IMG/VR virus record: IMGVR_UViG_3300014205_000188
Coordinates: 40,079 to 104,078 of that record
Strand: one strand, 5' to 3'
Source: a virus
Lineage: Duplodnaviria > Caudoviricetes
Length of the DNA: 64,000 nucleotides
Shown here: in pieces, positions 6,524 to 56,605 of the stretch
Position numbering within the stretch: position 1 is the first letter of the stretch
Layout: every line of letters begins with the position of its first letter
Program-made: the position numbers and the translations under genes
Notes under the pieces: generated by a model
What the model saw: only the letters and a program-made list of their open reading frames with translations
Databases searched by the model: none
Told to the model about the DNA's origin: nothing

Positions 6524-6540
6524 CGTTACCCCGCCTATAA
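6524..6540 (+). promoter_or_regulatory. Candidate late promoter motif CGTT-N8-TATAA
   Basis: CGTT accccgcc TATAA in the gap before the tube gene. The same spacing occurs in three other gaps. Confidence 0.55.
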
Positions 6541-6584
6541 CGACCGAAGTGTGAAGGAGACTGTGCCCTTCGGCGGAGGAGAGT

Positions 6585-7436
6585 ATGCCCGACTACAAGA
6601 ATCAAGACCTCAACCCCCAGAATGGGGTGGGTGGAACGTCATATATCTATGACCAGGGCGCCTCGGCTGATGGTCTGCGTACCGCAGTCAGCCAGAAAAC
6701 CCGTATTCTCACCCCTCATTACGGAAACAACCAATCACTCCATCAGATGGGCGTTTTGTCCAGTTTCAGCATTGACATGAGTCGAGGCGTGGAATCTGTT
6801 CGGGGTATCGGTTTTGGTGACAAGATTGCCGAGCAAGTACCCGGGGTTATGGACGCGGTGACGGGCAGCATGGAAAGGGCCCTACTCAATGGAGCAAACT
6901 TGTGGGCCTCCACGGGTTATGCCGCGGGTATCGACGGTCCCATGCGAAGCCTTGCACACCAGAAGTGGCCCTTCGACATTGAGTTGCAGCAGGCTTTCTC
7001 CGCCCTCTCCGACGCTGACCTCGGTGCAGCCAATGTGGGCTATGGTGGTCAGGCAGGTACCTTTAGCGGTGGCGCTAAGCAGATCTCTTACCCTCAGACC
7101 ACCAGTTCGGGTTCCAAGGGGTCTCCTTCCTATGACCCCAGTAGCCGGGGTCGGACGGCTCTGCTTACTATTTTGGAGGCATGCTGGTTCACGAGCTATG
7201 GTGTGAACTACGCAAAAGACACTTCCATCATCATGGAAAACGGTGCCTACAGTGCCACTGACATCCATGACTTTGCCAGTGTCTATGGGGAGTTCCTTGC
7301 TACGGGTAACGACCCCACGATTGGTCAGCTGGGTTCGATGCGCTTTGCCGAAAGTGGCTACAAGATTGGCCCCGCGGGTACTGGATTTAGCGGTGGCGGA
7401 ACCGTTTCCAGTTTTGCCCAAGTAACTGCGCAGTAA
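6585..7436 (+). CDS. Putative tail tube protein
   Basis: Tube-like pattern G.LSSFS..MSR.VE.VRGIG...E.VPG...ERALL...PFDI...LEACWFTSY...IIME. Sits before the chaperones and tape measure. GGAGGAG upstream. Confidence 0.7.
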   Translation: MPDYKNQDLNPQNGVGGTSYIYDQGASADGLRTAVSQKTRILTPHYGNNQSLHQMGVLSSFSIDMSRGVESVRGIGFGDKIAEQVPGVMDAVTGSMERALLNGANLWASTGYAAGIDGPMRSLAHQKWPFDIELQQAFSALSDADLGAANVGYGGQAGTFSGGAKQISYPQTTSSGSKGSPSYDPSSRGRTALLTILEACWFTSYGVNYAKDTSIIMENGAYSATDIHDFASVYGEFLATGNDPTIGQLGSMRFAESGYKIGPAGTGFSGGGTVSSFAQVTAQ

Positions 7437-7479
7437 CAACCAACTAGAAAGTCCTCAGGCAGTGGTATAGTCTAAGGGG

Positions 7480-7507
7480 TTGCCCCCGATGGCCTGACGG
7501 GTAAAAT
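7480..7507 (+). promoter_or_regulatory. Possible sigma70-type promoter
   Basis: TTGCCC (7480-7485)-N16-TAAAAT (7502-7507). An extended -10-like TGGTATAGT also lies at 7463-7471. Confidence 0.35.
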
Positions 7508-7513
7508 GAAGCA

Positions 7514-7540
7514 GCCCCGGGGTGTCTATCACCTCGGGGC
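7514..7540 (+). other. GC-rich stem-loop in the intergenic leader
   Basis: GCCCCGGGGTG-tctat-CACCTCGGGGC, an 11-bp stem with one G-U pair and no following U tract. Confidence 0.65.
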
Positions 7541-7594
7541 GCCGTGCATGTGGCCATCTGACTCTTTCCCACCCTGTAGGGCCTGGAGAGCACA

Positions 7595-8698
7595 ATGATG
7601 ATCACATTTGAGTCATTGGAAAAAGCCCTGGCTCCTATTGCGGAGGTGGGTCAACAGGAGTTGACTTTTGACCTGGGTGGGACCCTCATCACCCTCTCCG
7701 GGATCACCCCTGAGCAGGATATCGAGGTGACTCGTTTTGCAAATGAGGCACTCTCCACCGACGAGAGTATGCCCAACACAGCAGATTGGGCCACTCGTTT
7801 CAAACTTGCTCTCCTGTCCCATGCTATTGTAGCCGTTGGGGATCAGGATCTTCGTGGTGTTGAGACCATTGCTACCGGGGAGACCCTGCCTAATGGGGTT
7901 CCTTTGCGCTTGCCCAAGGCGCAGGCTATGAGGAAGTTGCTCTCCCGTTGGACAGAGTCCGTTCGTAACTTGCTCCTCCGTAAGTATGGAGAGTTGCTCG
8001 TTCAGTTGGAACTGAAGTCGGACAAGCTGGTCCAGTTTGACTTCATGGATTTGGACGCTGAAATCGCCAACTTGGAGGGTCGCCTGTCCTCCTTGAAGAA
8101 TGCAAGGGAGCAAGCCCAGGCCAAGGAGACCACTGAGATCGCCAATATGGTGAAGACCTTGGTGAAGATTGACTCCCAAGATCGAGAAGACTCTCATCAG
8201 TTGGTTGATCAGTTCCGGCAGACCCCAGTACAAGATGCTAAGATCGATCCCAGCGCCTTTGGAGGCCCCCCACAAGCCCCCAAGGGACCCCGCCAGTCGG
8301 TGCTGCCTGACCGGGCCACACCGCCACCCCCGAGGGCTCAGGAGCCCGTACAGAGGGTGCAGGAGCCCACTCCTGCACCCCAGGAGTATCGGGAGCCTCA
8401 CCAATCATTGGGCCCCGTAAACCTTCCAGAGGAGGACTCCTTCATCGACCCCTCAGATGAAGAGGGTTTTGCTGCAGCCATGCAGCTGGAAAACAGGCGC
8501 ATGGCTGAGTTGCGGGGGAACAGATTGAATCGACCCCCACACCTGGCGGCTCAAGAGGTAGTTCTTGAGCCGGAACAGATTTTCAACCCTGCTCCGGCTG
8601 AGGAGTACACAGGCCCACTGCCCCAACGGAGCATTCCCCCTGTGAATGTTGGGTCCAAGTCGATCAACCCTCGTTTCCAGCCCCCCAAGCGGTCATGA
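7595..8698 (+). CDS. Putative tail assembly chaperone 1 (globular N-terminus, coiled coil, Pro-rich tail)
   Basis: Located between tube and tape measure. FKLALLSHAIVAV...W...R.LL.RKY.EL is chaperone-like. GGAG upstream. Confidence 0.55.
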   Translation: MMITFESLEKALAPIAEVGQQELTFDLGGTLITLSGITPEQDIEVTRFANEALSTDESMPNTADWATRFKLALLSHAIVAVGDQDLRGVETIATGETLPNGVPLRLPKAQAMRKLLSRWTESVRNLLLRKYGELLVQLELKSDKLVQFDFMDLDAEIANLEGRLSSLKNAREQAQAKETTEIANMVKTLVKIDSQDREDSHQLVDQFRQTPVQDAKIDPSAFGGPPQAPKGPRQSVLPDRATPPPPRAQEPVQRVQEPTPAPQEYREPHQSLGPVNLPEEDSFIDPSDEEGFAAAMQLENRRMAELRGNRLNRPPHLAAQEVVLEPEQIFNPAPAEEYTGPLPQRSIPPVNVGSKSINPRFQPPKRS

Positions 8699-8701
8699 CC
8701 T

Positions 8702-15346: not shown

Positions 15347-15350
15347 CAGG

Positions 15351-22957: not shown

Positions 22958-22963
22958 TCTGCT

Positions 22964-26500: not shown

Positions 26501-29500
26501 AGGTGCTAGGAGAGACTCAAGTTAGGGTTGCCCCCGAAATGTTGTCCTCCAGTGTCCCATTGACTTGGGAGCTATATACGGGGTTCCCGGCCTCCGTCTT
26601 TGATCCCTCGCTGGTGGCTGATGTCCAGTACAAACCGTTTCAACATCTGCTGACGGATCCATTCACAGTCCGAGTCTTGCACCCAATGGGTGTAGTCCTC
26701 GCCTCTATGACGGATCGTCCCCATGCGGATCTGACCGAGGCTCTGATTTTAGGTCGAGATCTGGAACTTCGTTTTGGGTTGGTACATCAGAGTGGGGCGA
26801 CCGTCACCCCGTTGGCCGAGGCCCACGAGTTGGGCGGGTTGGCCAACGACGTGTTGGTGCTGGAGGACTCAACACGGGTGGATCAAGGTTCCTTTGCTCT
26901 TCAAATCGGGACCGAGGTGTTCTCTGGTTCCGAGCTGGTGGGTGTCTCCAATTTCAGCCCCGTGGTGATTGGGGTTGAGTATCTGACGCAAAGCTGGCTG
27001 GGGTTGCCCAAGGGAACCCTTCGCTTCAGCTCTGGGATCTTGTCCTCTCTGAGTGGGGCCAGCGTCTTCTATCGCGAGTTGTTCCGAGATCCTTCTGCCT
27101 TGACCTTGACAGAAGCTGAAATTGACTCGGGAGGTTACTTGAATCTCTCGAGTGTGGCCATGACCACCTATGCAGGCCAGTCCCTGTATGTGGCTGAGCG
27201 CTTGGTGACTGAGAATCACCGAGACGTTCATACCAGCCCCCAGTCAGGATCTTTTTCCCCCAATGCCCCGCTGAAAAGGGGTTCCATCATGGAGGTGGAA
27301 TACTGGAGGGCAGACTTGGAGGGTCGGCGTATTGGGGACAAGGTGGTGGAGTTCCTTCCCGTCCGGGTGCGCAAAGAAACAGCTACCAGGACATCTGCGA
27401 ATGTCTACCAGTTCAATTCAACCGCACAGACAGTGGTTTCTTCCTCCGATCCCGACGTATGGGTCGGAACACTTCTCCAGAACTTTGGACGGACGGACTT
27501 CCTGATTGACTACCCCTCGGGATGGGGTGGCAAGGGGCGGATCACCTTCACGGGGAAGTTGGTCGACGCTACCTCTCCGGTGAGCGTTTCCTATTCGGTT
27601 CTGGAGGCTCAGGGTGGAGAACGTTCCTACGCCGTGAGTCAACAGAATGTGTACAGTCCCCCATTCTACGTGAAGGCTAGTCAAAGTCGTTTTGGTCTGC
27701 GTGGAAATCGCACCGCTGACTTTGTGAGCGGACAGTTGTTGCGTATCGGCGAGGACTGTTTCTACGTTAAGGGTCTCCGATACTTCCCTGCAAGTGGCAC
27801 TGGGGGCGACGTCACAGAAGTTTCCTTCTACCCTCCAACGACCACTGAGGTGGGCAGTCGTTCTCCGGGTAATGACGTGTTGACCTTGATCACGGACAGG
27901 CCCCTGACTCCAGTGGTTGACCCCGACGGGTTAGCCCCTTTGAACACGACTGCGGATGCGGGGTTGATGTCAACCCTGGACATCAACCTGTTCCCCTTTG
28001 AGAATGTGGCTCGGGGACAGAAGACGATTCAGTTCAAGGGTGACCTTTTGGCCTTTGCGCTCCCCGGCCACATCTTGGAGCTTGGTGGTTGCCCCTACAC
28101 AGTGGCCTCTTCGGGCCTAACCCCGGATGGGACAGGAACTTGGGTGACCGTGACAGGAAGTTTCGGCCGTGCCTTTGATGTCCTCACGTCTCCCACTTTG
28201 AGACTGTCCTATCGTCCCGTGTATCCACCGAGCACCCGAGACTTTATGGGTGTGGGTCCAGTTCTAACCACTGAACCCGTGTTCCTAATCCTTTTTGGAG
28301 ACACCCAGAACGGTGTTGAGATTCCGGGTCGTTTGTTGGTTCCTGGGGTTGACTATTCTTTGGCCTGGGACTCCGGGGCCCTTTCCCTACTGTCACCATC
28401 TCGAGCACCATTGTCCGAGGGTCAGAGTTTGGTGCTCCTCTACACGCAAACCAGGGCCATGCAGCCCCAGATGCGTGGTGGGGTCCTCGTCAATCCTCGT
28501 TTTCATAGCGAGTTCCTGGCTGGAACAAGTCCGTCAGGGGACAATGGCCGATTGGGTGCGACCTTGTCGGCCACCTATACCTTTGCTAGCCCGGACAGCT
28601 TCTATTTCCGAGCCGTCAAATTGAGTCAGTTCATGGGTGAGGTAGCTCAGGAGGCAACGCAGGAAATCACGGCCCAACGGCCTGCGGGGTCTTTCAATAC
28701 CTCCATCTCTGGTACTCAGAATTGGAAGCAAGGTGTGTTGGGGCCCAAGGCTCGACGTCAACATCTGCATGACGTTGACCGCGTGGCTCGTTCTTTCCTT
28801 TCCTTCTACAATGACGCCACATCTGCTTTTGAGCAGGTCCAAGAAACGATCTCTGGTGGCTTTGTTGGCGACAGAGACGGTAAATTCCGGTTCTGGGTAG
28901 GACGAGATGCCAACTACCCTACCCCAGGCTATGAGGATGCTATCACGGGTGTCCTCAATCCTCGTTTCGTTTGGTCTGATGTGATGAACGCCGATCGTTC
29001 AGTGCCACTTTTCGTGGGACCCGAAGATTGGGTTGTTTCTCCCAAGTCAGCCAAGTTGGTGGACTCCGAGTTGGAAGGGACTTTCCTCGACCCCTCCAAA
29101 CTGGCTACCTTGATCTCAAGCCAACAAAAGCTCGTCCGAAACGATGTGGATGACCAGGTTCTGTTGCGTCTAGGGAAAGCCACCCCCCGGCGCATCCCCC
29201 AGATGCCTTACTTTGAGTTTCGGGCTCAAGGTGTTACGGGATGCATGTCCGATCAGCATGGTCTCTCTCGCTTGTTCCCGACACAGACCAAGGCTTTTTT
29301 CCGCACCCTTCCTGGTGCTGGAGCCCAGTTGGAGAGTGGCGGGGCTTTCTCCCCCGGGGTCTACACATCGGGACGAGAGATTGCAGGTCAGTGGGCTCGC
29401 ACCACTGGCCAACAAATCGGGCAACTCAGCAATCCGGCCATGGGCCCGATTGAAAATGTCAGCTCGGCCAACTTGACCGCTCGACGGGCTCGGGCCCGTA

Positions 29501-34797: not shown

Positions 34798-35009
34798 CCT
34801 CCGACCCCAAACAAATTCTGGTTGACTTGGACATCCCGGAGGGGACGTGGGTTGATGTTGGTGGTCAACAAGTGCCCCTGTCAGATAAGTCGTTAGCACT
34901 TCTTCATCAGATCAGGGCGCTACTTGAGGTACAGCAAAAAACGTATCAAGATGAATTGGTGCGACTGAAAGAACGATTGTCCCGGGTGACGATGGGTGGA
35001 GGCTCCTGA
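34794..35009 (+). CDS. Small coiled-coil protein
   Basis: 71 aa, ATGA and TGATG coupling on both sides, heptad-like C-terminal half. Confidence 0.75.
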   Translation: MTSDPKQILVDLDIPEGTWVDVGGQQVPLSDKSLALLHQIRALLEVQQKTYQDELVRLKERLSRVTMGGGS

Positions 35010-37888: not shown

Positions 37889-37897
37889 GAGGAAGTC

Positions 37898-38785: not shown

Positions 38786-38794
38786 GAGGTCCTG

Positions 38795-38811
38795 CGGTGT
38801 CCCTTCTATAG
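38795..38811 (+). promoter_or_regulatory. Candidate late promoter motif CGGT-N8-TATAG
   Basis: CGGT gtcccttc TATAG in the gap before the gp25-like gene. Confidence 0.6.
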
Positions 38812-38846
38812 CCCAAACCCCATGACGGGATACGGACCGGAGGAAC

Positions 38847-39977
38847 ATGTCTCAGGATTTTCAGCTTGCTTGGTACTGCCCCCATTTGATCTCGGAGGAA
38901 TACGTTACTCTGGGTTCTGATGGGATGTCCTTGGTGACTGAGCAGCCCATTGCCAACAGCGGGATTGTTCGCATCCTAGTCAATGACGAGTTTTTCATTC
39001 CTCAGTTGGGTTTGTACTCACAAGGGACTCTGCGTTCATCCCTCTCTGGACCTTTTGATCTCATTCCAGGAGAGGACGAGGTCATCCTGACAACCTCCGC
39101 CGGGACACAGAGTTACGTTTTTGGGGTTCGCAAAGTCACAAGGTATTCCGCGGAGCAAGTCGCCCAGATCCTGCGCAAGGCCTCTTTGAATGTGGCTCAT
39201 ATTGAGGCAGACGGTGGGCACTTGACTTTGGTGGACACGGCCTCAGTTGGACCGGACTCTTTTGTGGCCCTTTCTGGCACCGCTGCAGCCTCTCTGGGGT
39301 TCGGGGCAGCGGGAGTCAATGCCCTGCAACGGAGGGCCCGTGGAGCCCTCTTGTTCCCCCCCTGGGACCTTTACACGCCTCCTTCGGAGCCGTCCAAGCG
39401 GTATCCTCGTTTCAGGGAACCTTTGCGTGGTAACCCTGTGTTGAAGGTCTCGTACTCCGTACACAGGACCCGGTGCCTTCGTTGTGGTACCTCCGGTATT
39501 GAGAACGATCTTCGTTTCGACTCCGCTGGTCAGACTCTGATGATCAGGGATGAGAACTTGTTACAGCAGGCGGTGCTCAAGATCCTGCTGACGGACAAGG
39601 GGTCGAACCCGTATCACCTCTGGTACGGTACGGACCTGAAGTCCAGAATTGGTAGCAAAGCCATTAGTGGTGTGGCAGCTCTGATCAGTGAGGATGTTCG
39701 TCGCGCCTTGTCCCGTTATCAGGCTCTGCAACTGGAGCAGGCCAAGTACCAAAGCGTTTCTTTCAAAGAGCGCTTGTATGCGGTAACCGAAGTCAAGGTC
39801 ACGCCCCATGCTCAAGACCCCACCATTTTCATGCTGAGTGTCACGGTGCAGAATGCCTCCTCACAGCCCGTAACCCTTGATGTGGTTTATGCCACCTCAC
39901 AAGTGGTGGCTCTGATGGGATCCAATGGTCTCTCCCTAGGGACGGACGCTCTAGGCATCATCAATAGGAGCGTGTGA
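38847..39977 (+). CDS. gp25/gpW-like baseplate protein with N-terminal extra domains
   Basis: C-terminal LQQAVLKILLTDKGSNPYHLWYGTDL..RIG...VRRAL...ERL..V..VKV..DPT...V.V is the GPW/gp25 pattern. CPH and CLRC motifs upstream. Confidence 0.75.
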   Translation: MSQDFQLAWYCPHLISEEYVTLGSDGMSLVTEQPIANSGIVRILVNDEFFIPQLGLYSQGTLRSSLSGPFDLIPGEDEVILTTSAGTQSYVFGVRKVTRYSAEQVAQILRKASLNVAHIEADGGHLTLVDTASVGPDSFVALSGTAAASLGFGAAGVNALQRRARGALLFPPWDLYTPPSEPSKRYPRFREPLRGNPVLKVSYSVHRTRCLRCGTSGIENDLRFDSAGQTLMIRDENLLQQAVLKILLTDKGSNPYHLWYGTDLKSRIGSKAISGVAALISEDVRRALSRYQALQLEQAKYQSVSFKERLYAVTEVKVTPHAQDPTIFMLSVTVQNASSQPVTLDVVYATSQVVALMGSNGLSLGTDALGIINRSV

Positions 39978-39978
39978 G

Positions 39979-42900
39979 ATGGCTGTTACACCCACATTTT
40001 TGGGGCCCGATGGGTTGTACCGTGACAAGTACATTTTCACCACGGACAGCTCCTATCGGTTTTTTCATGGTCGGATGGATTCGGACACAGCGGACATGCT
40101 GGTCTCTATCCGGGGTGGGGTGTGGACCTCAGACCCCGACTACGTTCTTTTTGACGGTTCCACCTTCACCATTCCGAACCCCAGTGCCTATCCCGAGGGA
40201 TTACAACTCCTTCAAGGTCTGAATCGGATAGACGTGAAGTCGGTTTTGTCTAATGGACTGACAACTGCGGCTGGCACTATTGAGGCAAACCTGGCACTAG
40301 ACCGGGATGTTCGAGCAATTGCCTATCCCCCCTCTGGGGTCTACCTGGAAAGGATGGATCAGACGGTCAAGGTGTTAGTCACCGGCTTGAGTGACCCTAA
40401 CGTAACGGGGTACAACTTCTATGCATCCATCTCTCCTGGTGGTGGCATTTCCGGGTACAAGCGCATCAACCTCCAACCTGTCATCTCCTATGACACAGAA
40501 GAGGCCGTGGTTGCCATTGGGGCCCTGACCGTTGACTCCATTGTTCCCACGGATGGAGATGGCGTGCCCCTTTCCAATCCGGCCCTGTTTCGAGTCTCGG
40601 GACAACAGGTGGACTTGGCGGGGACTGTGTTGCAACTGGACTATGATGAGTCCATGGTGATCCCTGACTTGACCACCAGGTTCAGGACCACGACACAGGT
40701 CGAGGCGGTGGAGACGGTCAAGAAGTTTGTGTTCGTGCATGATCGACTTGCCACCCCCAACAGCATCACCTATCCAGCGGTGCCCTACAGTGAGTTCACA
40801 GCGGTTGCGGACACTGATCCGCTCTACTACGCTGTCACGGCGATTTATCTGATCAATGGTGCGGAGTACGAGTCCTCTTTTTCTCAAGAGGTGTCGGGCT
40901 ACCCTATGATCGTGACCCCCGCCATTACGGACCTTCCCTCTGTTTCCAGACAGCAGATTGTCAAGGACACCACGCTCACAATTTTCAGATCTCATCCTGA
41001 AGTAGAGGTGAAAGAGGGTTCCTACTTGAGGGACACCTTCATTGACCCTTTTTCGACCGAGGCTGAGAGGATTCGTTTTGTTCTTGGCTTTCTACAGGCC
41101 GCTCAGAGTTTCACCACGTTGCTGGCCATTGACGACCCAACCCATTCTGGTGTCAGTGTGCCCGTCACACAGAGTCCCTACAAGATGGCTCTCATGCAGG
41201 CTTTTTTCCTGCAGGACACCACCTCAGTCCAGAACCTGATTGACAACACTTTTGACCAGTTGGCGGCCCGACGTGGCATTGTGCGCGAAACGGGCAAGAG
41301 GTCTCGAGGTGAGGTCCTTTTCTACGTCACCAGAAAGCCTACCTCTACGATCTATCTGCCCATTGGAACAAAGGTGTCAGCGGGTTCTGCTAACTTCAGA
41401 ACCACCTCGGCGGCAAGGATCACAACAGCAGGAGCTGGGTCTACGTATAACCCAGCCACGGGCAGGTGGTCAGCAAGCGCCTATGTGCAAGCCCTAGACA
41501 CGGGCACGGCTGGCAATGTCATCCGAGATCAAATCCGAACGGTGACAGGAGGGCCCTCAGGAGTTCAGGTCACCAACTATGATCGGACGTTCGGGGGCCG
41601 GGACGTGGAGTCCAACTATGAGTTGGCAGTTCGGGCCGACGGCATGTTGTCCTCCGTGGACTCTGGTACCTATCGTGGTTACGTGCAAAAAGCCCAAGGG
41701 GTCCCCCAGGTACAACAGGTGAACGTTGTGGAGGGTGGTCATCAACTGATGATGCGTGACCTGGACTCCGCCGGAAATCACTGGGGAGGAAAAGTAGACA
41801 TCTGGGTGAAGGGTGGAAGTCAAGCCACCGTTCGAGATCTTTTCGCTTTCTCTTTTGACATCGTGGTTGCGGGTCAGTTCGAGCCTATCGGGGAGATTGG
41901 GAATCTTCGCTTCAGGGCTTTGGATTCTCGTTTGTCGGATCTCAATCCCATCATTGAGATGTTGGACATCCCATCTTGGGGCTATGAGTTTCGGGCCATC
42001 AACCCTCACAACGGCTCTGTACGGACTCTGAACCTCACGGGGGCCACGCTCATTCGACCCGACGGGCTGCAGTTGTCAGCCACGTACAACGATCCCACCC
42101 TGATTCATCTCACAGACATCTTCACGGGGTCTTTCCGTTTCCGCACCAGTAACAAGCAGGTGCTAAGCCGACAGCCAGCCAGTGAGATTCTTTCTTTGAC
42201 TCGTGTGTTGGACACCGGGTCCCAGATTCTGGTTGGGACAGCCGCTTACAGCTTGTTTCATCCCCATGACCCTTTGACGTTGGGTCGTTCCACTGCTGCA
42301 GGTGACTATCTGCAGGTGATCACTCCCATCGATGGAACCACCGTCGAAAACATTCCTTCTGGGGTTCCTTTGGTGGTCACGGGGGAGGAGCATGTCCTCC
42401 TCAAGGGGCCCGAGTATCTCAACAACCTGGGCGTCAACAAGTACACTGTTCGGGTTTACAATTTTGATCGGTCCGTCGAGTACGTTGGGCCTTTCCATCC
42501 TAATACCAGTAAGGACTTCAGCTTTTTGGACGAGAGTGGTGAGACACCACTGGCTGTAGTAATGGTCACGGGAGGACTCCTGACGGAGGGGTTGAAGGTG
42601 CTGGTGGACTACCAGCACGATGAGAACTACGTCGTGGAGTACACCACCAATGCGGTGGTGCAAGCGGTCCAAAACAAGGTGGAGGAGACCCGACACTGCA
42701 CAGCAGATGTTTTGGTCAAGAGCGCACATCCGGTGGGTGTCAACATCTCGGCTACCATTGTGCTCCTGAAAAATCACACGGCGGCACAGGTCGACGGGAT
42801 GGTGCGCACGAGCTTAGGTAAGGTTTTTGGATCCCTAACCCTGGGACAACCCTTGCGTCAAAGTGACGTCATTCAGGCGATTGAAACTGTGACTGGGGTG

Positions 42901-43449
42901 TCCTATTGCATTGTCCCACTTTCCAAGTTGGCACTAAAAGACGGGTCCCCCGTGATCAGAGAGCCCTTGGTGACAACGCAACAGGGAACGGACTGGGTTC
43001 CGCTCCCTCTCTCCGGTTGGGATACAGACGGTGTCAAGACGTACCTGATCACAGGCCCCCTCTACTGTGTGACAGCAGACGGCGGTGGGGCCGTGAATGA
43101 GTTCCGGGGTGTCACTTTCAATGACATGCCCATGACTTTGTCTCCCGCCGTTCCACAGTTTGACGGCAGTCCCTTGAAGGGCTTAGCTTATGGGGCTTGC
43201 ATCGTGGGTGGAGCCGGTATGAGCATTCCCGGTTATCCTACTTTGGCAACTGCGAACAGGGTACTGGTTTCGTTGCCCGAGGGTGTCACGCCATCTAGCA
43301 GTGCCTTGACAGTGACCTACATTGCGGACGGGGACACGGGGACAAAAAACATTGAGCCAGGTCCTACCGAGTATCTGGTGCTAGGGGACATGGATTTCAC
43401 CTTTGATGAGGACCGAGACTACTCGGCTCTTGTCACAGGCCGCCGTTGA
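39979..43449 (+). CDS. Baseplate J-like (T4 gp6-like) wedge protein with N-terminal Ig/FN3-like extension
   Basis: DQLAARRGIVR..G.RSRGEV.F, P.GTKV, FRTT, VQALDTGTAGNV, VTN....GGRDVESN.EL, GKVDIWV and LGQPLRQSDVI..IE.V.GV are Baseplate_J motifs. Confidence 0.8.
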   Translation: MAVTPTFLGPDGLYRDKYIFTTDSSYRFFHGRMDSDTADMLVSIRGGVWTSDPDYVLFDGSTFTIPNPSAYPEGLQLLQGLNRIDVKSVLSNGLTTAAGTIEANLALDRDVRAIAYPPSGVYLERMDQTVKVLVTGLSDPNVTGYNFYASISPGGGISGYKRINLQPVISYDTEEAVVAIGALTVDSIVPTDGDGVPLSNPALFRVSGQQVDLAGTVLQLDYDESMVIPDLTTRFRTTTQVEAVETVKKFVFVHDRLATPNSITYPAVPYSEFTAVADTDPLYYAVTAIYLINGAEYESSFSQEVSGYPMIVTPAITDLPSVSRQQIVKDTTLTIFRSHPEVEVKEGSYLRDTFIDPFSTEAERIRFVLGFLQAAQSFTTLLAIDDPTHSGVSVPVTQSPYKMALMQAFFLQDTTSVQNLIDNTFDQLAARRGIVRETGKRSRGEVLFYVTRKPTSTIYLPIGTKVSAGSANFRTTSAARITTAGAGSTYNPATGRWSASAYVQALDTGTAGNVIRDQIRTVTGGPSGVQVTNYDRTFGGRDVESNYELAVRADGMLSSVDSGTYRGYVQKAQGVPQVQQVNVVEGGHQLMMRDLDSAGNHWGGKVDIWVKGGSQATVRDLFAFSFDIVVAGQFEPIGEIGNLRFRALDSRLSDLNPIIEMLDIPSWGYEFRAINPHNGSVRTLNLTGATLIRPDGLQLSATYNDPTLIHLTDIFTGSFRFRTSNKQVLSRQPASEILSLTRVLDTGSQILVGTAAYSLFHPHDPLTLGRSTAAGDYLQVITPIDGTTVENIPSGVPLVVTGEEHVLLKGPEYLNNLGVNKYTVRVYNFDRSVEYVGPFHPNTSKDFSFLDESGETPLAVVMVTGGLLTEGLKVLVDYQHDENYVVEYTTNAVVQAVQNKVEETRHCTADVLVKSAHPVGVNISATIVLLKNHTAAQVDGMVRTSLGKVFGSLTLGQPLRQSDVIQAIETVTGVSYCIVPLSKLALKDGSPVIREPLVTTQQGTDWVPLPLSGWDTDGVKTYLITGPLYCVTADGGGAVNEFRGVTFNDMPMTLSPAVPQFDGSPLKGLAYGACIVGGAGMSIPGYPTLATANRVLVSLPEGVTPSSSALTVTYIADGDTGTKNIEPGPTEYLVLGDMDFTFDEDRDYSALVTGRR

Positions 43450-43460
43450 TAGGTGGACCG

Positions 43461-46400
43461 ATGACGGACCCGAAGAGCAAAAATCTCCTTCCCGGCATGT
43501 TGTCTCAAAACCCCTCCCCTTGGGAGGGGGACAGCCAAGATCGCAAGAGGAAACGGACCGAACAGGTAGAACGAGTTCTCACTGTTTTCAAGCAGTTGGT
43601 TCCCAGCACCTATTCCAGTCAGGTCCAGGGTCCCTTCTACATGACCCAGTTCCAGGCGGTAGCTGAGAGACTTGCCGACTTCCAGATCTCGGCTCAAGAG
43701 ATTTTTGCCGACTCCATGTACGACTTCACCCGTCCTGAGGTGCTCTATCAGATCCTCGGTGACTTGGTTTTCCCTGAGGCTCGGACCCAGGGTTATCCAG
43801 AGGTGCAGGGGGACATCAGTTACCGTACTTTTTTGCGCAGCATGGTTTCGTTACTCCTTCGAGGTTCTACTGCAGCGGTGCAGAAAGAGGGCATTGAACT
43901 GCTCACTGAAGCTACCGTGGAGATCATCGAAAAAGGGTTAGAGGCCCGAAAACTGCTGCAGTTGGACGAGTATGGCAATCTCAAGACCACCTCAGCTTGG
44001 GGACCTGAGGATGCATTTACCTTTGAGATCAATATCTCAAAGGTAGTGGGTGAAGTTGAGGTCAATGGGGTGATGGTCCCCTTGTACGGTTTCCCTTTGG
44101 AACCCCTCACGTTGCAGAGAAACGTGTACTTAGTACTGAGGGCGCTGAAACCGGCCCATGCCCTGTACGACTACAGGCACTTGTTTCAGGATGCCTTTGG
44201 GGATCTGTTCACTGAAAGAACCAGTTGGGAGCTGGACAGCTATTACTACCAAGATTTCCGACGGTATTGGTTGGGAGCAGCTCGCATCGCGGGAGTTTCG
44301 GGTGTGACCCGCTCTGATCGATCCCTTTTCAGTGACCCAACCAGAGATTTCACTCCTGTTAGACCAGGGTCCTGGTTGACAATCCTGTCCGGGCCTAACT
44401 CCATTCATGCAGGAGGGTTGGAAGGAACCATTGCCTCCTCTGACATGTCTCATGTCGGGCGTTACCGTGTGACCGAGGTGTTGGCTTTTGAGCAGGACGA
44501 CTCTGTTGTTCGGGCCTACCTCACATCACCCACGGGTCTGACAGGCTACGCTAGTGTGCTTGGAGACGTGGTGACGGATACGTCCCAAGTCTTGTGGCAC
44601 ACCGTTCAGGAGGGTGAAGTGCTCACTTTCTTGAACGGGCCAAATGCTGGTGACTATCGAATCAATTTCCTCTTGGGTCCAGACGGTGGGCCCGCAGGTG
44701 TCTCGGGACTTGGACCCGATGTTACGGGGGCACAGGTGTCTCCAGGTATTCTGCGTGTTCAACGCAGAATGGGTCAGACGGTCGCGAGTCAGCAGTACGA
44801 GGTGCAACTGGATCGTCTTGGTGACGCCATTCCACATCCGGTGGTTCAAGAAGATGTCTCGGTGCAGTTCTCGGGTTGGAGCGGTGGCACTAGGGATTGG
44901 CTGCTAACCTCCCGGGGACCACTGACCAAAACATGGGGGTCTATGACCCCGGCAACGAAGCAAGATGTCGTGGTCTGGGTGAACGGGGTGTCTGTTGACA
45001 TTCTGGAAGTGGATCCCTACCTAGGCAAAGTCACGCTGGTGAATCCCATAGCCCTCTTGCCTTTGGGTGACCCCCTCGGAAATGTCCTGGTGGACTACAA
45101 CTGGTTTCCTAATCCCATTTTTCCAATGGGCAACTTGAACACCGAGGGCTCTGTACTCAATCAATGGGATCAAGTAGGAGACGAAGCCGACGTTGTTTGG
45201 CATGGGGAGCAGATCCAAGATAGCACGCATCCGAAGGGAGCCGTTTCCACCTCCCGTTTCCCGATGAGCTTGGTGCTGGGTCCTGTTGACTATCCTGAGC
45301 CAATGTGGATCAGCCATCGTTATCAGGGGTACGAGAAGGCGTATTCGGCGCTCCTCAACAGCCCCACTACGCTGTTGCTGAATCAAAACCCTTATGTCTC
45401 TCAAGTTCCTGCCTTTGAAGTTCCCACCAACGGGAAGACCCGATCCTTTGAGGGAACCCAAAGCCCCTTGTTGGAGGACTGGTTCCTAACGGGTACGGAT
45501 GAGGGGCAGGCCAATGGGGATGGAACCTACACCGTGGTGGATGGGACCGTCGGCCCCTACAATCCTATGTCCCCTCCTCTGGCTATGTACTGGGAGCCCC
45601 TAGACCTGACTTTTCCGTCCTCCATCTTCATGGTTGGACGCCTTAGGATTTCCAGCATACAAAAGCATGGTGTGTTTACGGGTGTTGGGATGGGACTGCA
45701 TGACAACAGTCACCTCTACCTGGCGGGGGCTCTTCTGGTTGACGACCCCGCTGGATTGCAAGCCCCAATGATGCACCTAGGGTTGTTGCAGGACCCTACT
45801 CAGATGTCCTTGTTGGAGAGTTGGCATGTTGGACCCTTGGCAGCAGCCTCTTTGGAATCCACATCCTCGCTCACTGCAGCATCCTCCTCTGTTCCTTTGG
45901 GTTTTGTTGCAGGCTCCCGTTTCCAGATTGTAAGTGGCACACAGGCTGGTTTCTACACCGCTGTTGACGTGGTACGGCACAGCACGGGGGTCACTGAAGT
46001 TACGGTGTCCCCTGCCTTCCCCGAAGATCCCCAGCTTTGGGGCAACAAGTATTTTGACATCCTTTTTGAGGTGGATTGGGTGTCCAGTCAGTCTACCCTG
46101 AGGTTGGTGGTCAATCCGGGAACCAGGGTGGCCACCCTATTCGTTTCTGGTCAGATCTCAGGTGTCATAGCAGATCTGGATGGTTCCCACCCCATGCCCG
46201 AGCCTGCTCAAACGTCACTCCTGCTGAGCACGGAGTTTGGTGGCCAACTCTTTTGGGGCGCACTGGACTCCTATGCCACCTCAGCCTCGAGTTGGTCTTT
46301 TCTCCGTTATGGGGTCATCCCAGATCAAACGATCCTTCGTGGTTACGCTCAGGTTGTGAACACCGAGATGACGGTGTTGCCCGAGGATGAGACCCCCGGG

Positions 46401-48725
46401 TGGTTCTCTCCCGAGTTTTTCGGGCACTCCAAACTGAACCCACCCTCCTCGTTGCTTTTGAAAAGCACCTCAGCTAGCACCAGTCAACAGCAGACCTTTG
46501 GCTACAAGAGGATAGAACCATTTCTGGGTCAAGAATCTCACGTTGATCTGCGAGCCTCTTTCCAGGTTGACACAGGTGTCCTTGGTGCTGGGGACGCCAC
46601 ACTGGAGATTCAGGACGGACAGAGAGTGGCTCGACTGGCAACCCTGCTCTATTTTGAGGGGGGGACACCATGGCGTCAGCTTGTCTCCATGCCTCTGACA
46701 AGCTACGCGGGGTACATGGCACCGGACCCCTTGGTTTGGGAGTTCTTAGACCCTGTGGGCTCGACTTCAACATGGTGGTCCGACGGACCAGACCTCAATC
46801 TCACGGTGCCAGCTGGGCAAGCAGCCCGGTTCCTGGGGACCGTGGACACGTCGAGCATGCCTTGTGGGGATTCCGGTTGGAGGATGGCAGAGGCGCAGAT
46901 GTCCTCTACCTCAGAGGGTTACTTTTTGACTCTCTCCTCTGATTCCGGGCACACGATGCACCTGTACCTCAGGGGTGGGGTGACTCCTGGTGTGAGCCTT
47001 GTTGACGACAGTCTGGTGATCGTACAGGATTACAACTTTGACTGGACGGACGGGGGGCTACACACTTACCGCTTGGTTCTGTCTAACGGAGTGGTTTCAG
47101 TTCTGTGTGACGATGTCCTTCAGGCTCCTGCTGTAGGAGACGCCTCCTTTGCTTCCGGTGGGTCGAACACGGTCATTTTTGGGTCCATGGCTCTTGCTCC
47201 CACAGCGACAACCTGGAGATCCGTTTCCTACTCGGTCTTGCCTCCGGCAAATGTCAAGAGAACCTTGGGGATTTGGTTGGGAGGTGACTCCGACGATATT
47301 GATCAGTGGCAGATACCACGTTCTGACGCGACCACGGAACCCAACTCTTATCAGGTTGGCCCCGTTGTAGAGGAGATGGACTGGAGAAATACGATTGAGG
47401 TGGACTTGTTGAAGACAGTGGGGTGGGGTGTCACCTTGATCCGTCCTGATCTGCCCCCTCCTCCTTATTACAACCCAGAGACCCCGGGTTTTCCCGAGAC
47501 AGGATTTGCCACCCCAATTGCGGTGCCCTCTGCGGGTTGGATCAATGTCGAGGATGCTCTTCTACCCCGCTGGACAAGTTCCTTTGGGTCCATTGCTTTT
47601 GGAGCCCTGGACTCTCGGTCGGTGACACAACAGAAATGGGAGTACGTGCGATACAAGGTGTTCAAGACGGACACCGAGGAACACGCCTCACCCGAGCACA
47701 TGGTGCTCAACCAGTACAACGTAATCTCTAGTGGTGAACTGCTTCTAGACACGTCACTGGAGACAGTGACGGTTCCGGTTGTGAACACATCCAGTTTGGA
47801 TTTGAATGCTGGTCATGTGAGTGCCAGAACAATCTATCGGGTCAACGACGGGGTGCGAGACTTTTACAGCTCCTCCTGGAGTTTCAACCTTGAGACTCAG
47901 GTCCTGTCCTTAACCGGCGGTTTGACCTTCGCAGGGTCTTACGTGACCGTTGTATTCAGTCCCGGGCTACCCGTTACCAGCACCTATTTGATGTCACAAC
48001 CCGTTGAGGATGGCATGACGATCCTCAATGAGCGGACGCCACCTATCCCAATGGGTCAATGTGGGGAGGACCTGTGGGTTGAATCCTCGGGTAGCTTGAA
48101 CCCTCCGTATCTGGTGTCCTCCTTTGAGAAAGACCCCGAGGCTCTGTATGAGCAGATGTCTTTCATGACAGTTGACAATGGGGGTCAGTCGGGAATTATT
48201 TTCTCCATCCAAGAGGGCGTGGTCCCAGATGTTTCTGGTTTTGACAGCACGCTAGGGGAGGACATCTATGCACATGATGGGATTGGAGCCCCCCTGCTCG
48301 GAACGGGAAACTCTGCCAACTTGTTAGCCTCGGGGTCGAAAGTTGGAGTTGGCTTTGGGGCCCATGTCCTAGGTTTTTCGGGCACATCCTATACCGAATC
48401 TGCTCGTGGCTTGAGTGACGGGGTACCTTCACAAGGTGGGGGACTTCCCGGCAAAATTCTGTTTGCATCAGGGGGGTCTTTTTATGGGTTAGCCGTTGAC
48501 AACATGGGTCATATCACTACTCAACGTTTTCCTTTGGGTGGGCTGTTGAATGAGGTGGTTCTTTACCCCTGTGCGGCTCTGTCTCGTGGTTGCCCCCGCC
48601 GTACCGATTGGGTTTTGCGGGTCTGGTCTTTGAGTGTGGGGGGCTTGGACACTCCCTTGGTGGAAACGATGCCAGCGCTGACAGAGACCCTGACCGAGTT
48701 TAGCATGCTGGTGCCCCCCAGCTAG
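43461..48725 (+). CDS. gpI/gp7-like wedge protein fused to a large multi-domain extension (ConA/LamG-like segments)
   Basis: YRTFL..MV.LLLRGST and LRALKPAH near the N-terminus. Later FDWTDGGLHTYRLVLSNGVVSVLCDD. ATG 43461 has AGGTGG upstream. Confidence 0.65.
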   Translation: MTDPKSKNLLPGMLSQNPSPWEGDSQDRKRKRTEQVERVLTVFKQLVPSTYSSQVQGPFYMTQFQAVAERLADFQISAQEIFADSMYDFTRPEVLYQILGDLVFPEARTQGYPEVQGDISYRTFLRSMVSLLLRGSTAAVQKEGIELLTEATVEIIEKGLEARKLLQLDEYGNLKTTSAWGPEDAFTFEINISKVVGEVEVNGVMVPLYGFPLEPLTLQRNVYLVLRALKPAHALYDYRHLFQDAFGDLFTERTSWELDSYYYQDFRRYWLGAARIAGVSGVTRSDRSLFSDPTRDFTPVRPGSWLTILSGPNSIHAGGLEGTIASSDMSHVGRYRVTEVLAFEQDDSVVRAYLTSPTGLTGYASVLGDVVTDTSQVLWHTVQEGEVLTFLNGPNAGDYRINFLLGPDGGPAGVSGLGPDVTGAQVSPGILRVQRRMGQTVASQQYEVQLDRLGDAIPHPVVQEDVSVQFSGWSGGTRDWLLTSRGPLTKTWGSMTPATKQDVVVWVNGVSVDILEVDPYLGKVTLVNPIALLPLGDPLGNVLVDYNWFPNPIFPMGNLNTEGSVLNQWDQVGDEADVVWHGEQIQDSTHPKGAVSTSRFPMSLVLGPVDYPEPMWISHRYQGYEKAYSALLNSPTTLLLNQNPYVSQVPAFEVPTNGKTRSFEGTQSPLLEDWFLTGTDEGQANGDGTYTVVDGTVGPYNPMSPPLAMYWEPLDLTFPSSIFMVGRLRISSIQKHGVFTGVGMGLHDNSHLYLAGALLVDDPAGLQAPMMHLGLLQDPTQMSLLESWHVGPLAAASLESTSSLTAASSSVPLGFVAGSRFQIVSGTQAGFYTAVDVVRHSTGVTEVTVSPAFPEDPQLWGNKYFDILFEVDWVSSQSTLRLVVNPGTRVATLFVSGQISGVIADLDGSHPMPEPAQTSLLLSTEFGGQLFWGALDSYATSASSWSFLRYGVIPDQTILRGYAQVVNTEMTVLPEDETPGWFSPEFFGHSKLNPPSSLLLKSTSASTSQQQTFGYKRIEPFLGQESHVDLRASFQVDTGVLGAGDATLEIQDGQRVARLATLLYFEGGTPWRQLVSMPLTSYAGYMAPDPLVWEFLDPVGSTSTWWSDGPDLNLTVPAGQAARFLGTVDTSSMPCGDSGWRMAEAQMSSTSEGYFLTLSSDSGHTMHLYLRGGVTPGVSLVDDSLVIVQDYNFDWTDGGLHTYRLVLSNGVVSVLCDDVLQAPAVGDASFASGGSNTVIFGSMALAPTATTWRSVSYSVLPPANVKRTLGIWLGGDSDDIDQWQIPRSDATTEPNSYQVGPVVEEMDWRNTIEVDLLKTVGWGVTLIRPDLPPPPYYNPETPGFPETGFATPIAVPSAGWINVEDALLPRWTSSFGSIAFGALDSRSVTQQKWEYVRYKVFKTDTEEHASPEHMVLNQYNVISSGELLLDTSLETVTVPVVNTSSLDLNAGHVSARTIYRVNDGVRDFYSSSWSFNLETQVLSLTGGLTFAGSYVTVVFSPGLPVTSTYLMSQPVEDGMTILNERTPPIPMGQCGEDLWVESSGSLNPPYLVSSFEKDPEALYEQMSFMTVDNGGQSGIIFSIQEGVVPDVSGFDSTLGEDIYAHDGIGAPLLGTGNSANLLASGSKVGVGFGAHVLGFSGTSYTESARGLSDGVPSQGGGLPGKILFASGGSFYGLAVDNMGHITTQRFPLGGLLNEVVLYPCAALSRGCPRRTDWVLRVWSLSVGGLDTPLVETMPALTETLTEFSMLVPPS

Positions 48726-48743
48726 TGGTAGAGTGTCCCTTGG

Positions 48744-48760
48744 CGGTAGAGCGTTTATCA
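48744..48760 (+). promoter_or_regulatory. Candidate late promoter motif CGGT-N8-TATCA
   Basis: CGGT agagcgtt TATCA in the gap before 48784. Confidence 0.55.
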
Positions 48761-48783
48761 GAGGACCTGGGAGGGTGGCTTAA

Positions 48784-49437
48784 ATGGCATTGCACCGAGA
48801 CAAGACAAAAACCGTTCGCCAGGGGTTCAAGATGAGCTGCAACCTAGGGGTGTATCAGGAGGAGCCGACCGCAAGGATGAAGGGTAAGTTCCTTTTTGAG
48901 ATGCGAGACGCAAAGTCAGGAACCCTGCTCGAGTACTGGGAGAAGGAGAACATCATCACTCTCGATGCCGGGATTTTGATGGCGAGACTTCTCAAGGACA
49001 GCACCAACCCCAACCCAGGAGCCCACAATGGAATCCTGATGTTGGCTGTGGGTACGGGTGCCACGGGAAACCTTTTGAGCCCCGATGCTCCGCAAGCGGG
49101 GCAACGCCGTTTGAATGCCGAGATTGCTCGAAAGGCTTTTGTCTCCACCCAGTTCCGTAACCAGAGTGGTGTGGCGGTGGCTTATCCCACGAACGTGGTT
49201 GATTACACCACTACGTTCGGAGAGTCAGAGGCTGTGGGACCTCTCAATGAGATGTCTCTTTTGAGCCCCGCCTCGACCAATCCCTTGGTAACCAATCCGA
49301 TTATGAATGGTCCCTCAGACTACGACCCCACGCTTGACGTGACTGGCTTTGATCTGGGAGTCAATTATCTGACTTTCAGTGTGGTGTCAAAACCCGCTAC
49401 CGCTATTCTGACGGTCACTTGGCGTCTCACCCACTGA
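48784..49437 (+). CDS. Tail fibre attachment / collar-like protein
   Basis: NIIT..AG..MARLL, LAVGTG, L.AEIARK, TTTFGESEA.GPLNEMSL and K.....LTVTWRL resemble stand-alone fibre N-terminal (baseplate-binding) domains. Confidence 0.55.
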   Translation: MALHRDKTKTVRQGFKMSCNLGVYQEEPTARMKGKFLFEMRDAKSGTLLEYWEKENIITLDAGILMARLLKDSTNPNPGAHNGILMLAVGTGATGNLLSPDAPQAGQRRLNAEIARKAFVSTQFRNQSGVAVAYPTNVVDYTTTFGESEAVGPLNEMSLLSPASTNPLVTNPIMNGPSDYDPTLDVTGFDLGVNYLTFSVVSKPATAILTVTWRLTH

Positions 49438-49482
49438 GGTAAGGTTCCCGCCTGTGTCTTCTTTGGTTTGTGAGGGCTGCAA

Positions 49483-52983: not shown

Positions 52984-52993
52984 GGAGGCTGCT

Positions 52994-55900: not shown

Positions 55901-56587
55901 CTACAACCCGGGGATACACAACCAGATTACACCACAAGTACTGGCTGGCATTTCTACACCCGTTGTTTTGACGTGGCCCATGTTCGCAGTGCTAATCCTT
56001 GGAACTGCATCGGTCAGAGTACCGTAGCCATCCGAGTGGACGGTTTGACCCTCGAGGATTTCCAATATGTAGCACCAGGACCAGGTTCCCTAACCGTTGC
56101 CAACGTGGGCATTGCCATTCAGGTGAAGGTCCCTGGTCAAAGTACCTGGATGGACCTAGGGCGGCGAGACGGTGACGGACCCAGCAAACAAGATGCTTCT
56201 TTGGATGGGGCCGGTTGTCAGGTAGTGGGCACCCAAACTTTCACGGGTGTGGATCCTGACGCCGGTATTGTTTATAGTCAGGTGCTGGTACATTTGGGGC
56301 CTTGGGCCACCTTGGCACAGGGCTACAGTGCCGGTGGTGGGCTTTTTGAGGTTCCTCTTCTACTCAGAGTCTGGATGGACAGTGCCGCAGCTGATTACGA
56401 CATGCAGAAAAAGAATCTGGGACCAGGATCCTTTTTTGGTGCTGCAGACCCATCCGTTTGGTCACACCGTGTGAGGGGAATCACTGGACTCCAGGTGTTG
56501 CACCCGGATGATGTGTTGGAACCTTCCGCCGCTCAGTTGACGGAGTGGGCCGCTTATCTGGAGCCACTGGCTGGTCCAGGTGCTTGA
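52994..56587 (+). CDS. Putative tail fibre/receptor-binding structural protein
   Basis: Start at ATG 52994 after AAGGAGG. EHLEDPKGAHQASAIS...NVEAAIDEI is a motif typical of trimeric fibre proteins. Confidence 0.6.
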   Translation: MPRPTNPGLLQTGPGKIDPGTNNLVLIGAGMAGPPPNVGLPGFTTLSGTMLGWPSGLTTGSLTEHLEDPKGAHQASAISIDGKPALLYSTNVEAAIDEIMGAIAPEPPKLGQWVAHMASFFTGIPDWGSLRLTDGPPSYQAPPGGSVTGSDVYPIYWTAPTPTTDRRSTGLVSLAGEDPLTDPIWNHHSSVLGTFGGTKAGGYTDVNTGEVVRTRLVPAYPVFPWATLDVVPSFCLSGSLYPADKGVLALLHFPDPQAGLLFLDQSLTDRCWSALLLGQGLDTTSFGTSTPGGLTCDGGSGGIFSPGLDSQGSYDPFAFPGRASGQWDLNEIHTGLSVVDGAPLPAPWTAGAQRIQNDIVPGPGQVRLGTVAAAGEADPTGYGIPILGATTAAYNPPLPVDANIGEALLGNAVVTSSNFFRYRLPYLSDYSPLTGLKYTPSGENRRLTRETARYFDVTSTPSNTNNAWTEQVDGTWFLKTAGNYSGFDQDYWTWQLGRYRQIHYLSTAIGSSVRMGTLLLIHFKSEGDFEKCVRDGIMPWDVVAGYPVYGVTATVDPLIGSYNNVVNREVGAAPIPAAPDYGYTGTPYHSLRSALYVADDTTAPTTIAGHHWSLASVAPALDYVCVSGVSYAIPRYRATNVANVAIDSLYASFQDAWQEGYRVDDAALLNGMAPAQVSSPNPVFISWAHFKYEATPLAANFPAAFTSSLGYREQRVEFPLPYAGVDAGNALYSELNGPAGGEFLTVSTEGPAPLPVGNVTFPGDSLYPSFSSDAAPRVFVRRPHLTNPLQPSTATGWGQKLDYTGPLEKVLFHSTGFYHSAPGDGGVFGNFLTGGVAYPVLLTAEKDFKERFLDEVYRVKSNFPGVVDPVAQAHLQGPGMSGWVFAPMPVPVRMGDTGYTADATWANSSWLQLGEHHNNLAISTELQVAGLPDRNPPPENGVKVPFPSAGLLQYPKTDYTAIYWPTSADLQPGDTQPDYTTSTGWHFYTRCFDVAHVRSANPWNCIGQSTVAIRVDGLTLEDFQYVAPGPGSLTVANVGIAIQVKVPGQSTWMDLGRRDGDGPSKQDASLDGAGCQVVGTQTFTGVDPDAGIVYSQVLVHLGPWATLAQGYSAGGGLFEVPLLLRVWMDSAAADYDMQKKNLGPGSFFGAADPSVWSHRVRGITGLQVLHPDDVLEPSAAQLTEWAAYLEPLAGPGA

Positions 56588-56588
56588 G

Positions 56589-56605
56589 CGGTTGGTTGGT
56601 TATAG
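56589..56605 (+). promoter_or_regulatory. Candidate late promoter motif CGGT-N8-TATAG
   Basis: CGGT tggttggt TATAG in the gap before the tailspike gene. Confidence 0.6.

Follow-up and report, generated by a model that had tools for sequence, protein, structure and literature searches.

The stretch of DNA analysed in this study (64,000 nt, hereafter the window) makes up the final 64 kb of a viral contig of 104,078 bp deposited in IMG/VR (IMGVR_UViG_3300014205_000188, referred to here as G000), the CheckV completeness of which amounts to 20%. Four intergenic sites of the window were confirmed by sequence comparison to be real copies of a two-box DNA signal, which consists of CGNT (box 1), a spacer of exactly 8 nt and TATA. 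Judging from the genomes compared, CGNT-N8-TATA seems to be a promoter class lacking a -35 element, characteristic of a family of uncultivated huge phages with genomes of ~400-530 kb, hundreds of which retain the signal ahead of the same genes. Its reader is probably a factor that the phage specifies and that acts on the core polymerase of the host; on balance, we consider this the probable explanation of the motif.

All four sites are located on the plus strand, and their coordinates, the exact 8-nt spacing and the distance of 28-49 nt between TAT and the next start codon agree with the preliminary description of the window. Site 1 (6524..6541, CGTT-accccgcc-TATAAC, CGTTaccccgccTATAAC) has its TAT 49 nt before the start of a gene for a 283-aa protein (6585-7436), which is the first gene of the plus-strand block. 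At site 2 (38795..38812, CGGT-gtcccttc-TATAGC, CGGTgtcccttcTATAGC) this distance, measured to the start of a gp25-like gene, is 40 nt. Site 3 (48744..48761, CGGT-agagcgtt-TATCAG, CGGTagagcgttTATCAG), a member of the CGGTAGAG subclass, precedes a 217-aa gene (48784-49437) by 28 nt, and site 4 (56589..56606, CGGT-tggttggt-TATAGT, CGGTtggttggtTATAGT), the box 1 of which begins 2 nt past the upstream stop codon, precedes a 1788-aa gene (56637-62003) by 36 nt.

The motif had been defined after the fact from these four sites, and as far as the window is concerned the reservation proved justified. The eight plus-strand gaps of at least 40 nt were shuffled and searched for motifs composed of a 4-mer (with one degenerate position), a spacer of 0-20 nt and a 3-mer that were shared by at least four gaps. 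Because an equally complex motif was common to at least four gaps in 80 of 150 such trials, the occurrence in four gaps of eight is by itself not significant; in the real gaps, five other motifs of the same complexity also reach four gaps. Nor is the motif over-represented in the window as a whole, where 5 matches were observed on both strands vs 4.34 expected. Four of these five matches sit in plus-strand gaps, which make up ~1% of the sequence, and the fifth (CGTTcacccgtgTAT, 61170..61184, plus strand), located inside the 1788-aa gene on its coding sense strand, is consistent with chance. A 20-nt matrix built exclusively from relatives gave three window hits of at least 11 bits, all of them true intergenic sites, with site 3 attaining the top score in the window (16.7 bits); mononucleotide shuffles of the window gave 2-12 hits at the same threshold (mean ~6). 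Motif-like sequences seem to be avoided inside genes, or TA may simply be depleted in coding sequence.

Relatives sharing 41-66% protein identity with the window phage occur frequently in IMG/VR and in metagenomes of the Joint Genome Institute (JGI), and include contigs of 528, 444, 436 and 257 kb. A complete “huge phage” of ~528 kb has been reported from Ace Lake (PMC7416419). This phage is a member of the same family, as is the complete 436 kb IMG/VR genome G006 (435,804 bp, direct terminal repeats, CheckV completeness 100%), which is syntenic with the window contig. Three related contigs, G001 (109 kb), G002 (74 kb) and G003 (21 kb), were taken whole with open reading frame (ORF) calling. 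All 256 tetramers occurring 8 nt before TAT were then counted 20-70 nt upstream of starts on the coding strand, and the counts were compared with the expectation derived from the total counts. CGGT ranked first of the 256 in the window contig (4 of 5 occurrences, p=1e-6), in G001-G003 (8/30, p=4e-8, with CGTT in second place) and in the complete genome G006 (8/23, p=2e-7). Scanning of spacings from 0 to 20 nt in the four genomes G000-G003 revealed enrichment at 8 nt alone, with 17 of 54 matches in upstream zones vs 0-2 per genome elsewhere, and the corresponding figures for CGNT-N8-TAT in G006 were 15 of 67 vs 0-5 at other spacings. Among downstream trimers TAT was found 17 times and the runner-up 5 times. 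The late timing proposed for the motif found no support here: just six of the 15 sites of G006 are located within the block syntenic with the window contig, and no function could be assigned by PHROGs or Pfam to the genes that follow its non-syntenic sites or the extra sites of G000.

The same element is found at orthologous positions. A metagenome scan with the gp25-like protein yielded 44 loci with 38 distinct upstream regions, 20 of which carry the exact motif ahead of the gp25-like ortholog (shuffle mean 0.36), with 15 distinct spacers and 0 antisense copies. For the locus of the 283-aa protein, the best 80 of 463 IMG/VR relatives gave 61 distinct upstream regions: exact CGKT-N8-TAT is present in 31 of them (shuffle mean 0.73) and CGNT-N8-TAT in 44 (shuffle mean 1.29), with 39 distinct spacers and 1-2 antisense copies. 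The spacers are as unrelated as had been supposed, and the enrichment ahead of genes was borne out both against total counts and against shuffles. A Gibbs sampler of width 20, run with no prior information on 62 upstream sequences of the 283-aa locus, returned the consensus tCGnTwgnnnGyCTATA, in which the conserved positions were counted as C 54, G 51, T 61, C 53, T 61, A 60, T 57 and A 51 (of 62). The third position of box 1 was T in 22, G in 17, A in 14 and C in 9 of these sequences, and therefore the position originally described as G/T is N family-wide; the two-box motif stood, and its restriction to CG(G/T)T did not. Sites 3 and 4 are retained in relatives with altered spacers, the orthologs of site 3 reading CGGTagagcctcTAT in G001, CGGTaaagttgtTATGC in G002, CGATagtgcgtcTATCAG in G003 and CGGTaaatcgccTATGAT in G006, and those of site 4 CGGTgagttggtTATAAG in G001 and CGGTttgttaatTATAAT in G003. 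The motif is credible because it is replicated in independent genomes, at independent loci and in unbiased motif discovery; this credibility came through comparison with relatives, not from the original four sites.

With regard to its anatomy, the element has the orientation of the gene it precedes, and start codons follow it at 28-60 nt. In most cases box 1 directly adjoins the stop codon of the gene before it, and the sites would therefore be internal promoters. No conservation is apparent upstream of box 1 beyond the preceding T/C. Among 53 aligned orthologous sites, TTGACA at 16-18 nt from TATA was no better represented than at control offsets, none of the four window sites passed a sigma-70 consensus scan, and the matches to this consensus in the window were near chance (6 vs 7.9 expected and 13 vs 8.6 expected). 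In the hexamer TAT is fixed by the way the sites were defined, and it is followed by A in 11 of the 16 sites of G000-G003. At two sites, in G002 near 22.7 kb and in the 485 kb relative W01 near 176.4 kb, TAT is preceded at 16-17 nt by a perfect TTGACA, and CGGT is found at N8 within the intervening spacer; TAT therefore occupies the position of the -10 hexamer.

Downstream of TATA there follows a C-rich stretch and then a C-poor one, which opens with T(A/G)(G/A)G 16 nt past the first T of TATA. In the window this possible third element reads TGAAGG at site 1 (6552..6557, plus strand) and TGACGG at site 2 (38823-38828, plus strand), and it is absent at sites 3 and 4. T is present at +16 in 12 of the 16 sites of G000-G003, in 14 of 21 orthologs of the gp25 locus and in 30 of 53 orthologs of the 283-aa locus. 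The element is TGA in the window contig and mostly TAG in G006 (9 of the 17 sites tallied). Where the start codon is 50-60 nt away, it is distinct from the ribosome-binding site. T(A/G)(G/A)G is a candidate start-site or leader element. The proposal that the motif splits the tail module into transcription units found no support in terminators: no terminator-like hairpins occur in the gaps ahead of the sites at 38795, 48744 and 56589, the three that were scanned, and terminator-like hits were not clearly above chance (18 vs 19.4 expected and 31 vs 21.4 expected).

A phage-encoded RNA polymerase or a late factor had been envisaged as the reader of the motif. The former could not be substantiated. 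Six-frame searches of G006, G007, G008, G009, G013, G016 and W01 gave no Pfam match to the beta and beta-prime subunits (RNA_pol_Rpb1_2, Rpb2_6), although very divergent polymerases could escape such searches, and a search run without a positive control detected no T7-type RNA_pol (PF00940) in six-frame translations of G006, five near-complete relatives and W01. Pfam and PHROGs scans of every ORF in the initial 46 kb of the contig and in the non-syntenic portions of both G001 and G002 recognised neither a polymerase nor a sigma factor, and the Sigma70_r2 profile had no match in G000-G005 or W01. Two Sigma70_r4-like proteins of W01 were set aside because of their non-sigma architecture, a helix-turn-helix (HTH) near the N-terminus and an I-TevI-like hit, as was a 491-aa ORF of G006, which was weakly flagged by Sigma70_r2 but contains DUF2325 only and is not sigma-like.

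The alternative of a late factor gained partial support from a conserved sigma-like protein encoded by relatives. Traced from weak Sigma70_r2 hits, the gene of this 345-aa protein is located on the minus strand of G006 (158752-159789; locus L213:18755-19789). Its homologues include a 394-aa protein of G007 (Sigma70_ECF, 20.8 bits, together with a C-terminal HTH) and a 268-aa protein of G017 (Sigma70_r2, 22.6 bits), both with borderline Pfam sigma scores, and a further one in W01. The conserved block reads DVLQEVYKGLL...FGHYVHMV...NYHRK.KRR. A total of 771 homologues were found in a large protein collection, many of them on contigs of 346-438 kb; most have no Pfam annotation, and some are labelled “sigma24 family” by JGI. 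A profile of 62 sequences of the family matches sigma-H in the PDB (3mzy, E=1.3e-5). The AlphaFold2 model has a mean pLDDT (predicted local distance difference test) score of 81, and the best Foldseek hits listed are nearly all sigma-factor chains (mainly sigma-H, sigma-E, AlgU and SigW of the extracytoplasmic function (ECF) type), with E-values that are modest (best 3e-3) because the two domains are oriented differently. An extra beta-rich domain of ~90 residues is present at the N-terminus. The predicted combination of region 2 with a C-terminal HTH of region 4 assigns the protein to the sigma-70 family as an ECF-like member, and it appears to be the best candidate reader of CGNT-N8-TATA. 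Its gene in G006 is preceded by a host-type TTGACA-N17-TAGGAA (~159.86 kb). Canonical TTGACA-N17-TAnnnT promoters were also noticed in non-structural regions of the window contig (contig positions 18548-18576, upstream of the window) and of G001 (86.4-86.5 kb), indicating a bacterial host with ordinary sigma-70 promoters.

The element lacks the defining features of the known promoter classes with which it was compared, and the earlier statement that it is not of the sigma-70, sigma-54 or T4 late type was upheld. Sigma-70 promoters have a TTGACA-like -35 box 16-18 nt upstream of a -10 hexamer TAnnnT with a conserved final T; at the sites described here the -35 hexamer is missing and the final T is poorly conserved. 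Sigma-54 promoters, with a near-invariant GG at -24 and GC at -12 that are 10 nt apart (GG-N10-GC), likewise consist of two short boxes one helical turn apart without a -35, and cGGt-N8-tAT can be written as GG-N10-AT. Here, however, AT stands at -12 in place of GC, and the second G of GG varies across the family; no sigma-54 or enhancer-binding protein turned up in searches that were not aimed at them. T4-type late promoters are defined by the octamer TATAAATA at -10, read by gp55, gp33 and the sliding clamp. The likeness to them comprises a short A/T-rich -10-like element that lacks a -35 and precedes virion genes in a large phage with a contractile tail, and a specificity factor that is phage-encoded and acts on the host core polymerase (presumed in the present case). 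In contrast to T4, the core is TATA followed by variable bases, a second box, CGNT, is required at a fixed 8 nt upstream, and the candidate factor is not gp55-like but a two-domain ECF-like sigma with an N-terminal extension; the octamer TATAAATA was found at no motif site in any genome examined, the window hexamers being TATAAC, TATAGC, TATCAG and TATAGT.

T4 middle promoters combine a MotA box centred near -30 with a sigma-70 -10 (sigma appropriation). They resemble the element in having a host-type -10 and a phage-specific upstream box in place of the -35, whereas the box in the present case would lie at ~-22, not -30, and a homologue of MotA or AsiA was not identified here. Promoters of T7-like single-subunit RNA polymerases are near-invariant over ~23 bp, from -17 to +6, unlike the just 8-10 conserved positions and the free spacer seen here. 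ECF (group 4) sigma promoters consist of a GGAAC-like -35 and a CGT-like -10 that are 16-17 nt apart (e.g. GGAAC-N16-17-CGTx). The candidate reader is ECF-like and CGnT of box 1 recalls the CGT core of the ECF -10, but the boxes are just 8 nt apart, no conserved element exists 16-17 nt upstream of either of them, and conservation does not reach further upstream than position -2 of box 1. An archaeal reading (B recognition element and TATA box) was rejected, given that the boxes are 8 nt apart and not adjacent, that Shine-Dalgarno sites and canonical TTGACA promoters are present and that a virion protein has a peptidoglycan amidase domain. Three GACA(C/G)TATA sites on the minus strand, located outside the window, could be read as SP6-like, a reading that was left aside as post hoc and mostly intragenic.

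The late promoter of the non-virion RNA polymerase of phage AR9 is AACA-N6-T(A/G) and that of phiKZ is TATG, with the start site in the T-A/G box (PMC5312081). AR9 is also a giant phage, and its promoter, which is frequent before late genes, shares with the element a conserved tetranucleotide, a fixed short free spacer and a T-A/G box. The two differ in sequence and spacing (8 here vs 6) and in the location of the AR9 start site in the second box, and beta/beta-prime polymerase genes, divergent forms of which could escape, remained undetected in the complete relatives of the window phage. In form the motif most resembles the AR9 late promoter, and in logic the late or middle promoters of T4. 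The consensus CGNT-N8-TATA was not found in papers on the Ace Lake phage (PMC7416419), huge-phage clades (PMC7162821) and phage G (PMC12484599), which mention phage sigma factors or software-predicted promoters.

According to the interpretation favoured here, the family consensus tCGnT(w)(g)-N4-(G)(y)C-TATA, often accompanied by T(A/G)(G/A)G 16 nt past the first T of TATA, would act as an internal or operon-start promoter. TATA would be a -10-like element, as suggested by the distance to TTGACA at the two sites of relatives, and CGNT, one helical turn upstream (~-24 to -21), would be contacted by a factor that the phage specifies and that binds the core RNA polymerase of the host; the best candidate for this factor is the conserved ECF-like sigma protein with its extra N-terminal domain. 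The host-type promoter before the sigma gene of G006 would suit an early-to-later cascade, in which the factor is made and the host core is then directed to CGNT-N8-TATA. A more specific version is tentative and, in our estimation, less than likely: an undescribed architecture, with box 1 at ~-22, TATA and T(A/G)G ~16 nt downstream, the readers of which would form a new clade of ECF-like sigma factors of phages in which the extra N-terminal domain, and not region 4, touches box 1.

Several observations weigh against such a phage-specified promoter. Promoter function is deduced solely from where the element lies and how it is conserved, and the sigma-like gene is not on the fragment (20%) that contains the window, the link between motif and sigma being a co-occurrence at the level of the family. 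The ~15 exact sites of G006, per 441 called ORFs, show no clustering in the structural block. The motif is not enriched in G004, a more distant relative, and the signal in W01 is weak, with box 1 loosened to C[AG]NT. TATAnn ends in T at just 6 of 16 sites, in contrast to the -10 of sigma-70, and T(A/G)G lies ~11 nt past the hexamer, beyond the normal start-site distance. Moreover, because the -35 and -10 elements of ECF promoters lie 16-17 nt apart, a spacing of 8 nt would be unreadable by sigma domains 4 and 2 in their usual geometry.

Alternatively, the host sigma-70 holoenzyme might read TATA as its -10, with CGNT serving as the site of a separate activator, of phage or host origin, that replaces the -35 contact (cf. 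T4 MotA/AsiA) and the phage sigma uninvolved. We regard this as rather unlikely. TAT does occupy the -10 position relative to the perfect TTGACA at two sites, the canonical promoters of these phages are evidence that host sigma-70 is used, and MerR and Ros/MucR regulators are encoded by relatives; on the other hand, the last T of the hexamer is poorly conserved, an activator was not identified, and box 1 at ~-22 would be nearer the -10 than any known appropriation box, that of MotA being at ~-30. The same arrangement would agree with the AsiA-like anti-sigma proteins reported in huge phages (PMC7162821). The conserved bases might also act in RNA, as a processing site, a translational-regulator site or a leader element of polycistronic mRNA. 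The strict sense-strand bias and the fixed position before ribosome-binding sites would also fit this, as do sites directly after stop codons within long co-directional gene blocks; yet it appears improbable, given that the boxes are non-complementary, that the spacer varies freely without covariation, that short boxes at an exact spacing with a free spacer and a TATA core are typical of protein-DNA recognition, and that a perfect -35 box stands at promoter distance at two sites. Reading by a phage-encoded RNA polymerase, either multisubunit and non-virion as in AR9 and phiKZ or single-subunit as in T7, with the start at or next to TATA, has the formal likeness to AACA-N6-T(A/G) and TATG in its favour (PMC5312081), but is likewise improbable in view of the missing Rpb1_2, Rpb2_6 and T7-type matches in G006, the near-complete relatives and W01, from which divergent enzymes may have escaped. 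Finally, a post-hoc chance pattern without function, for which the shuffled gaps and the near-expected number of window matches would speak, is refuted by the replication of the motif in independent genomes and loci and by its unbiased discovery.

As to the setting of the sites, the G+C content of the window is 55%, and from 6585 to its end every gene is on the plus strand, many of them being very large (up to 3742 aa). The gp25-like gene encodes a baseplate wedge protein (38847-39977, plus strand) and is followed by a gene for a Baseplate_J protein (39979-43449, plus strand), and a 1734-aa protein of the window carries an Amidase_2 domain. A minus-strand gene (2657-5290), located in the block whose transcription runs away from the structural genes, codes for a protein of 877 aa, in which a DUF6745 domain (E=4e-36) occupies the C-terminal part. 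Distant relatives are represented by a 485 kb GenBank record (LR745208.1), Bacillus phage G and a Tunturiibacter phage, and a BLASTN search of the baseplate region against GenBank phages gave no match. Further likely sites are located on the same contig outside the window, at contig positions 28247 (plus strand) and 6960 (minus strand), and perhaps another at 26663 (plus strand).

The number of plus-strand gaps given earlier, eight, was correct, but one of them, the 211-nt gap 34798-35008 before a 959-aa gene, contains an ORF of 71 aa. In relatives the ortholog is preceded by a stretch of comparable length, and this gap probably represents a small gene and not truly intergenic sequence. The degenerate copy suspected at 49441-49457 had to be discarded: it reads AGGT-N8-GTG (49442..49456, plus strand), with three mismatches, two of them in TAT, was missed by the matrix scan and has no motif in the orthologous gaps of loci L007 and L009. 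The 158-nt gap 7437-7594 before a 367-aa gene contains a lone TATAGT (7466-7471) without a CGNT box and then G+C-rich, hairpin-forming stretches. A similarly placed TAT(A/G) follows the 283-aa ortholog in G002 (TATAGA) and G001 (TATGAT), and this gap may represent a second promoter type or a structured leader.

Some additional features were observed in the relatives. The 1759-aa gene of the window (43446-48725) has an ortholog that in Ace Lake-type relatives is broken by ~5.3 kb (L010/L012 15100-20397, G001), and a promoter-like CATTgatgcgccTATA site within this interruption is kept in G001 and G003. In the non-syntenic parts of G001 and G002 (L013 and L017-L020; the gene was not pinned down), two proteins match the actin-like Pfam family Volactin (E=8.6e-69), others match CinA, VWA/VIT, MerR and Ros/MucR, and a TnpB/Cas12f-like transposon protein and many homing endonucleases of the HNH and GIY-YIG types are encoded there as well.

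Hardly anything is known about the timing of gene expression in uncultivated huge phages with genomes larger than 400 kb. A family-wide cis-element with a sharp consensus provides a marker for transcription units in hundreds of metagenomic phage genomes, and together with the conserved phage sigma-like protein it makes up a testable pairing for which no cultivated host is needed, possibly a compact sigma/promoter pair orthogonal to the host. If the undescribed architecture outlined above is true, it would constitute a compact, host-orthogonal promoter without a -35 element, common to hundreds of huge phages.

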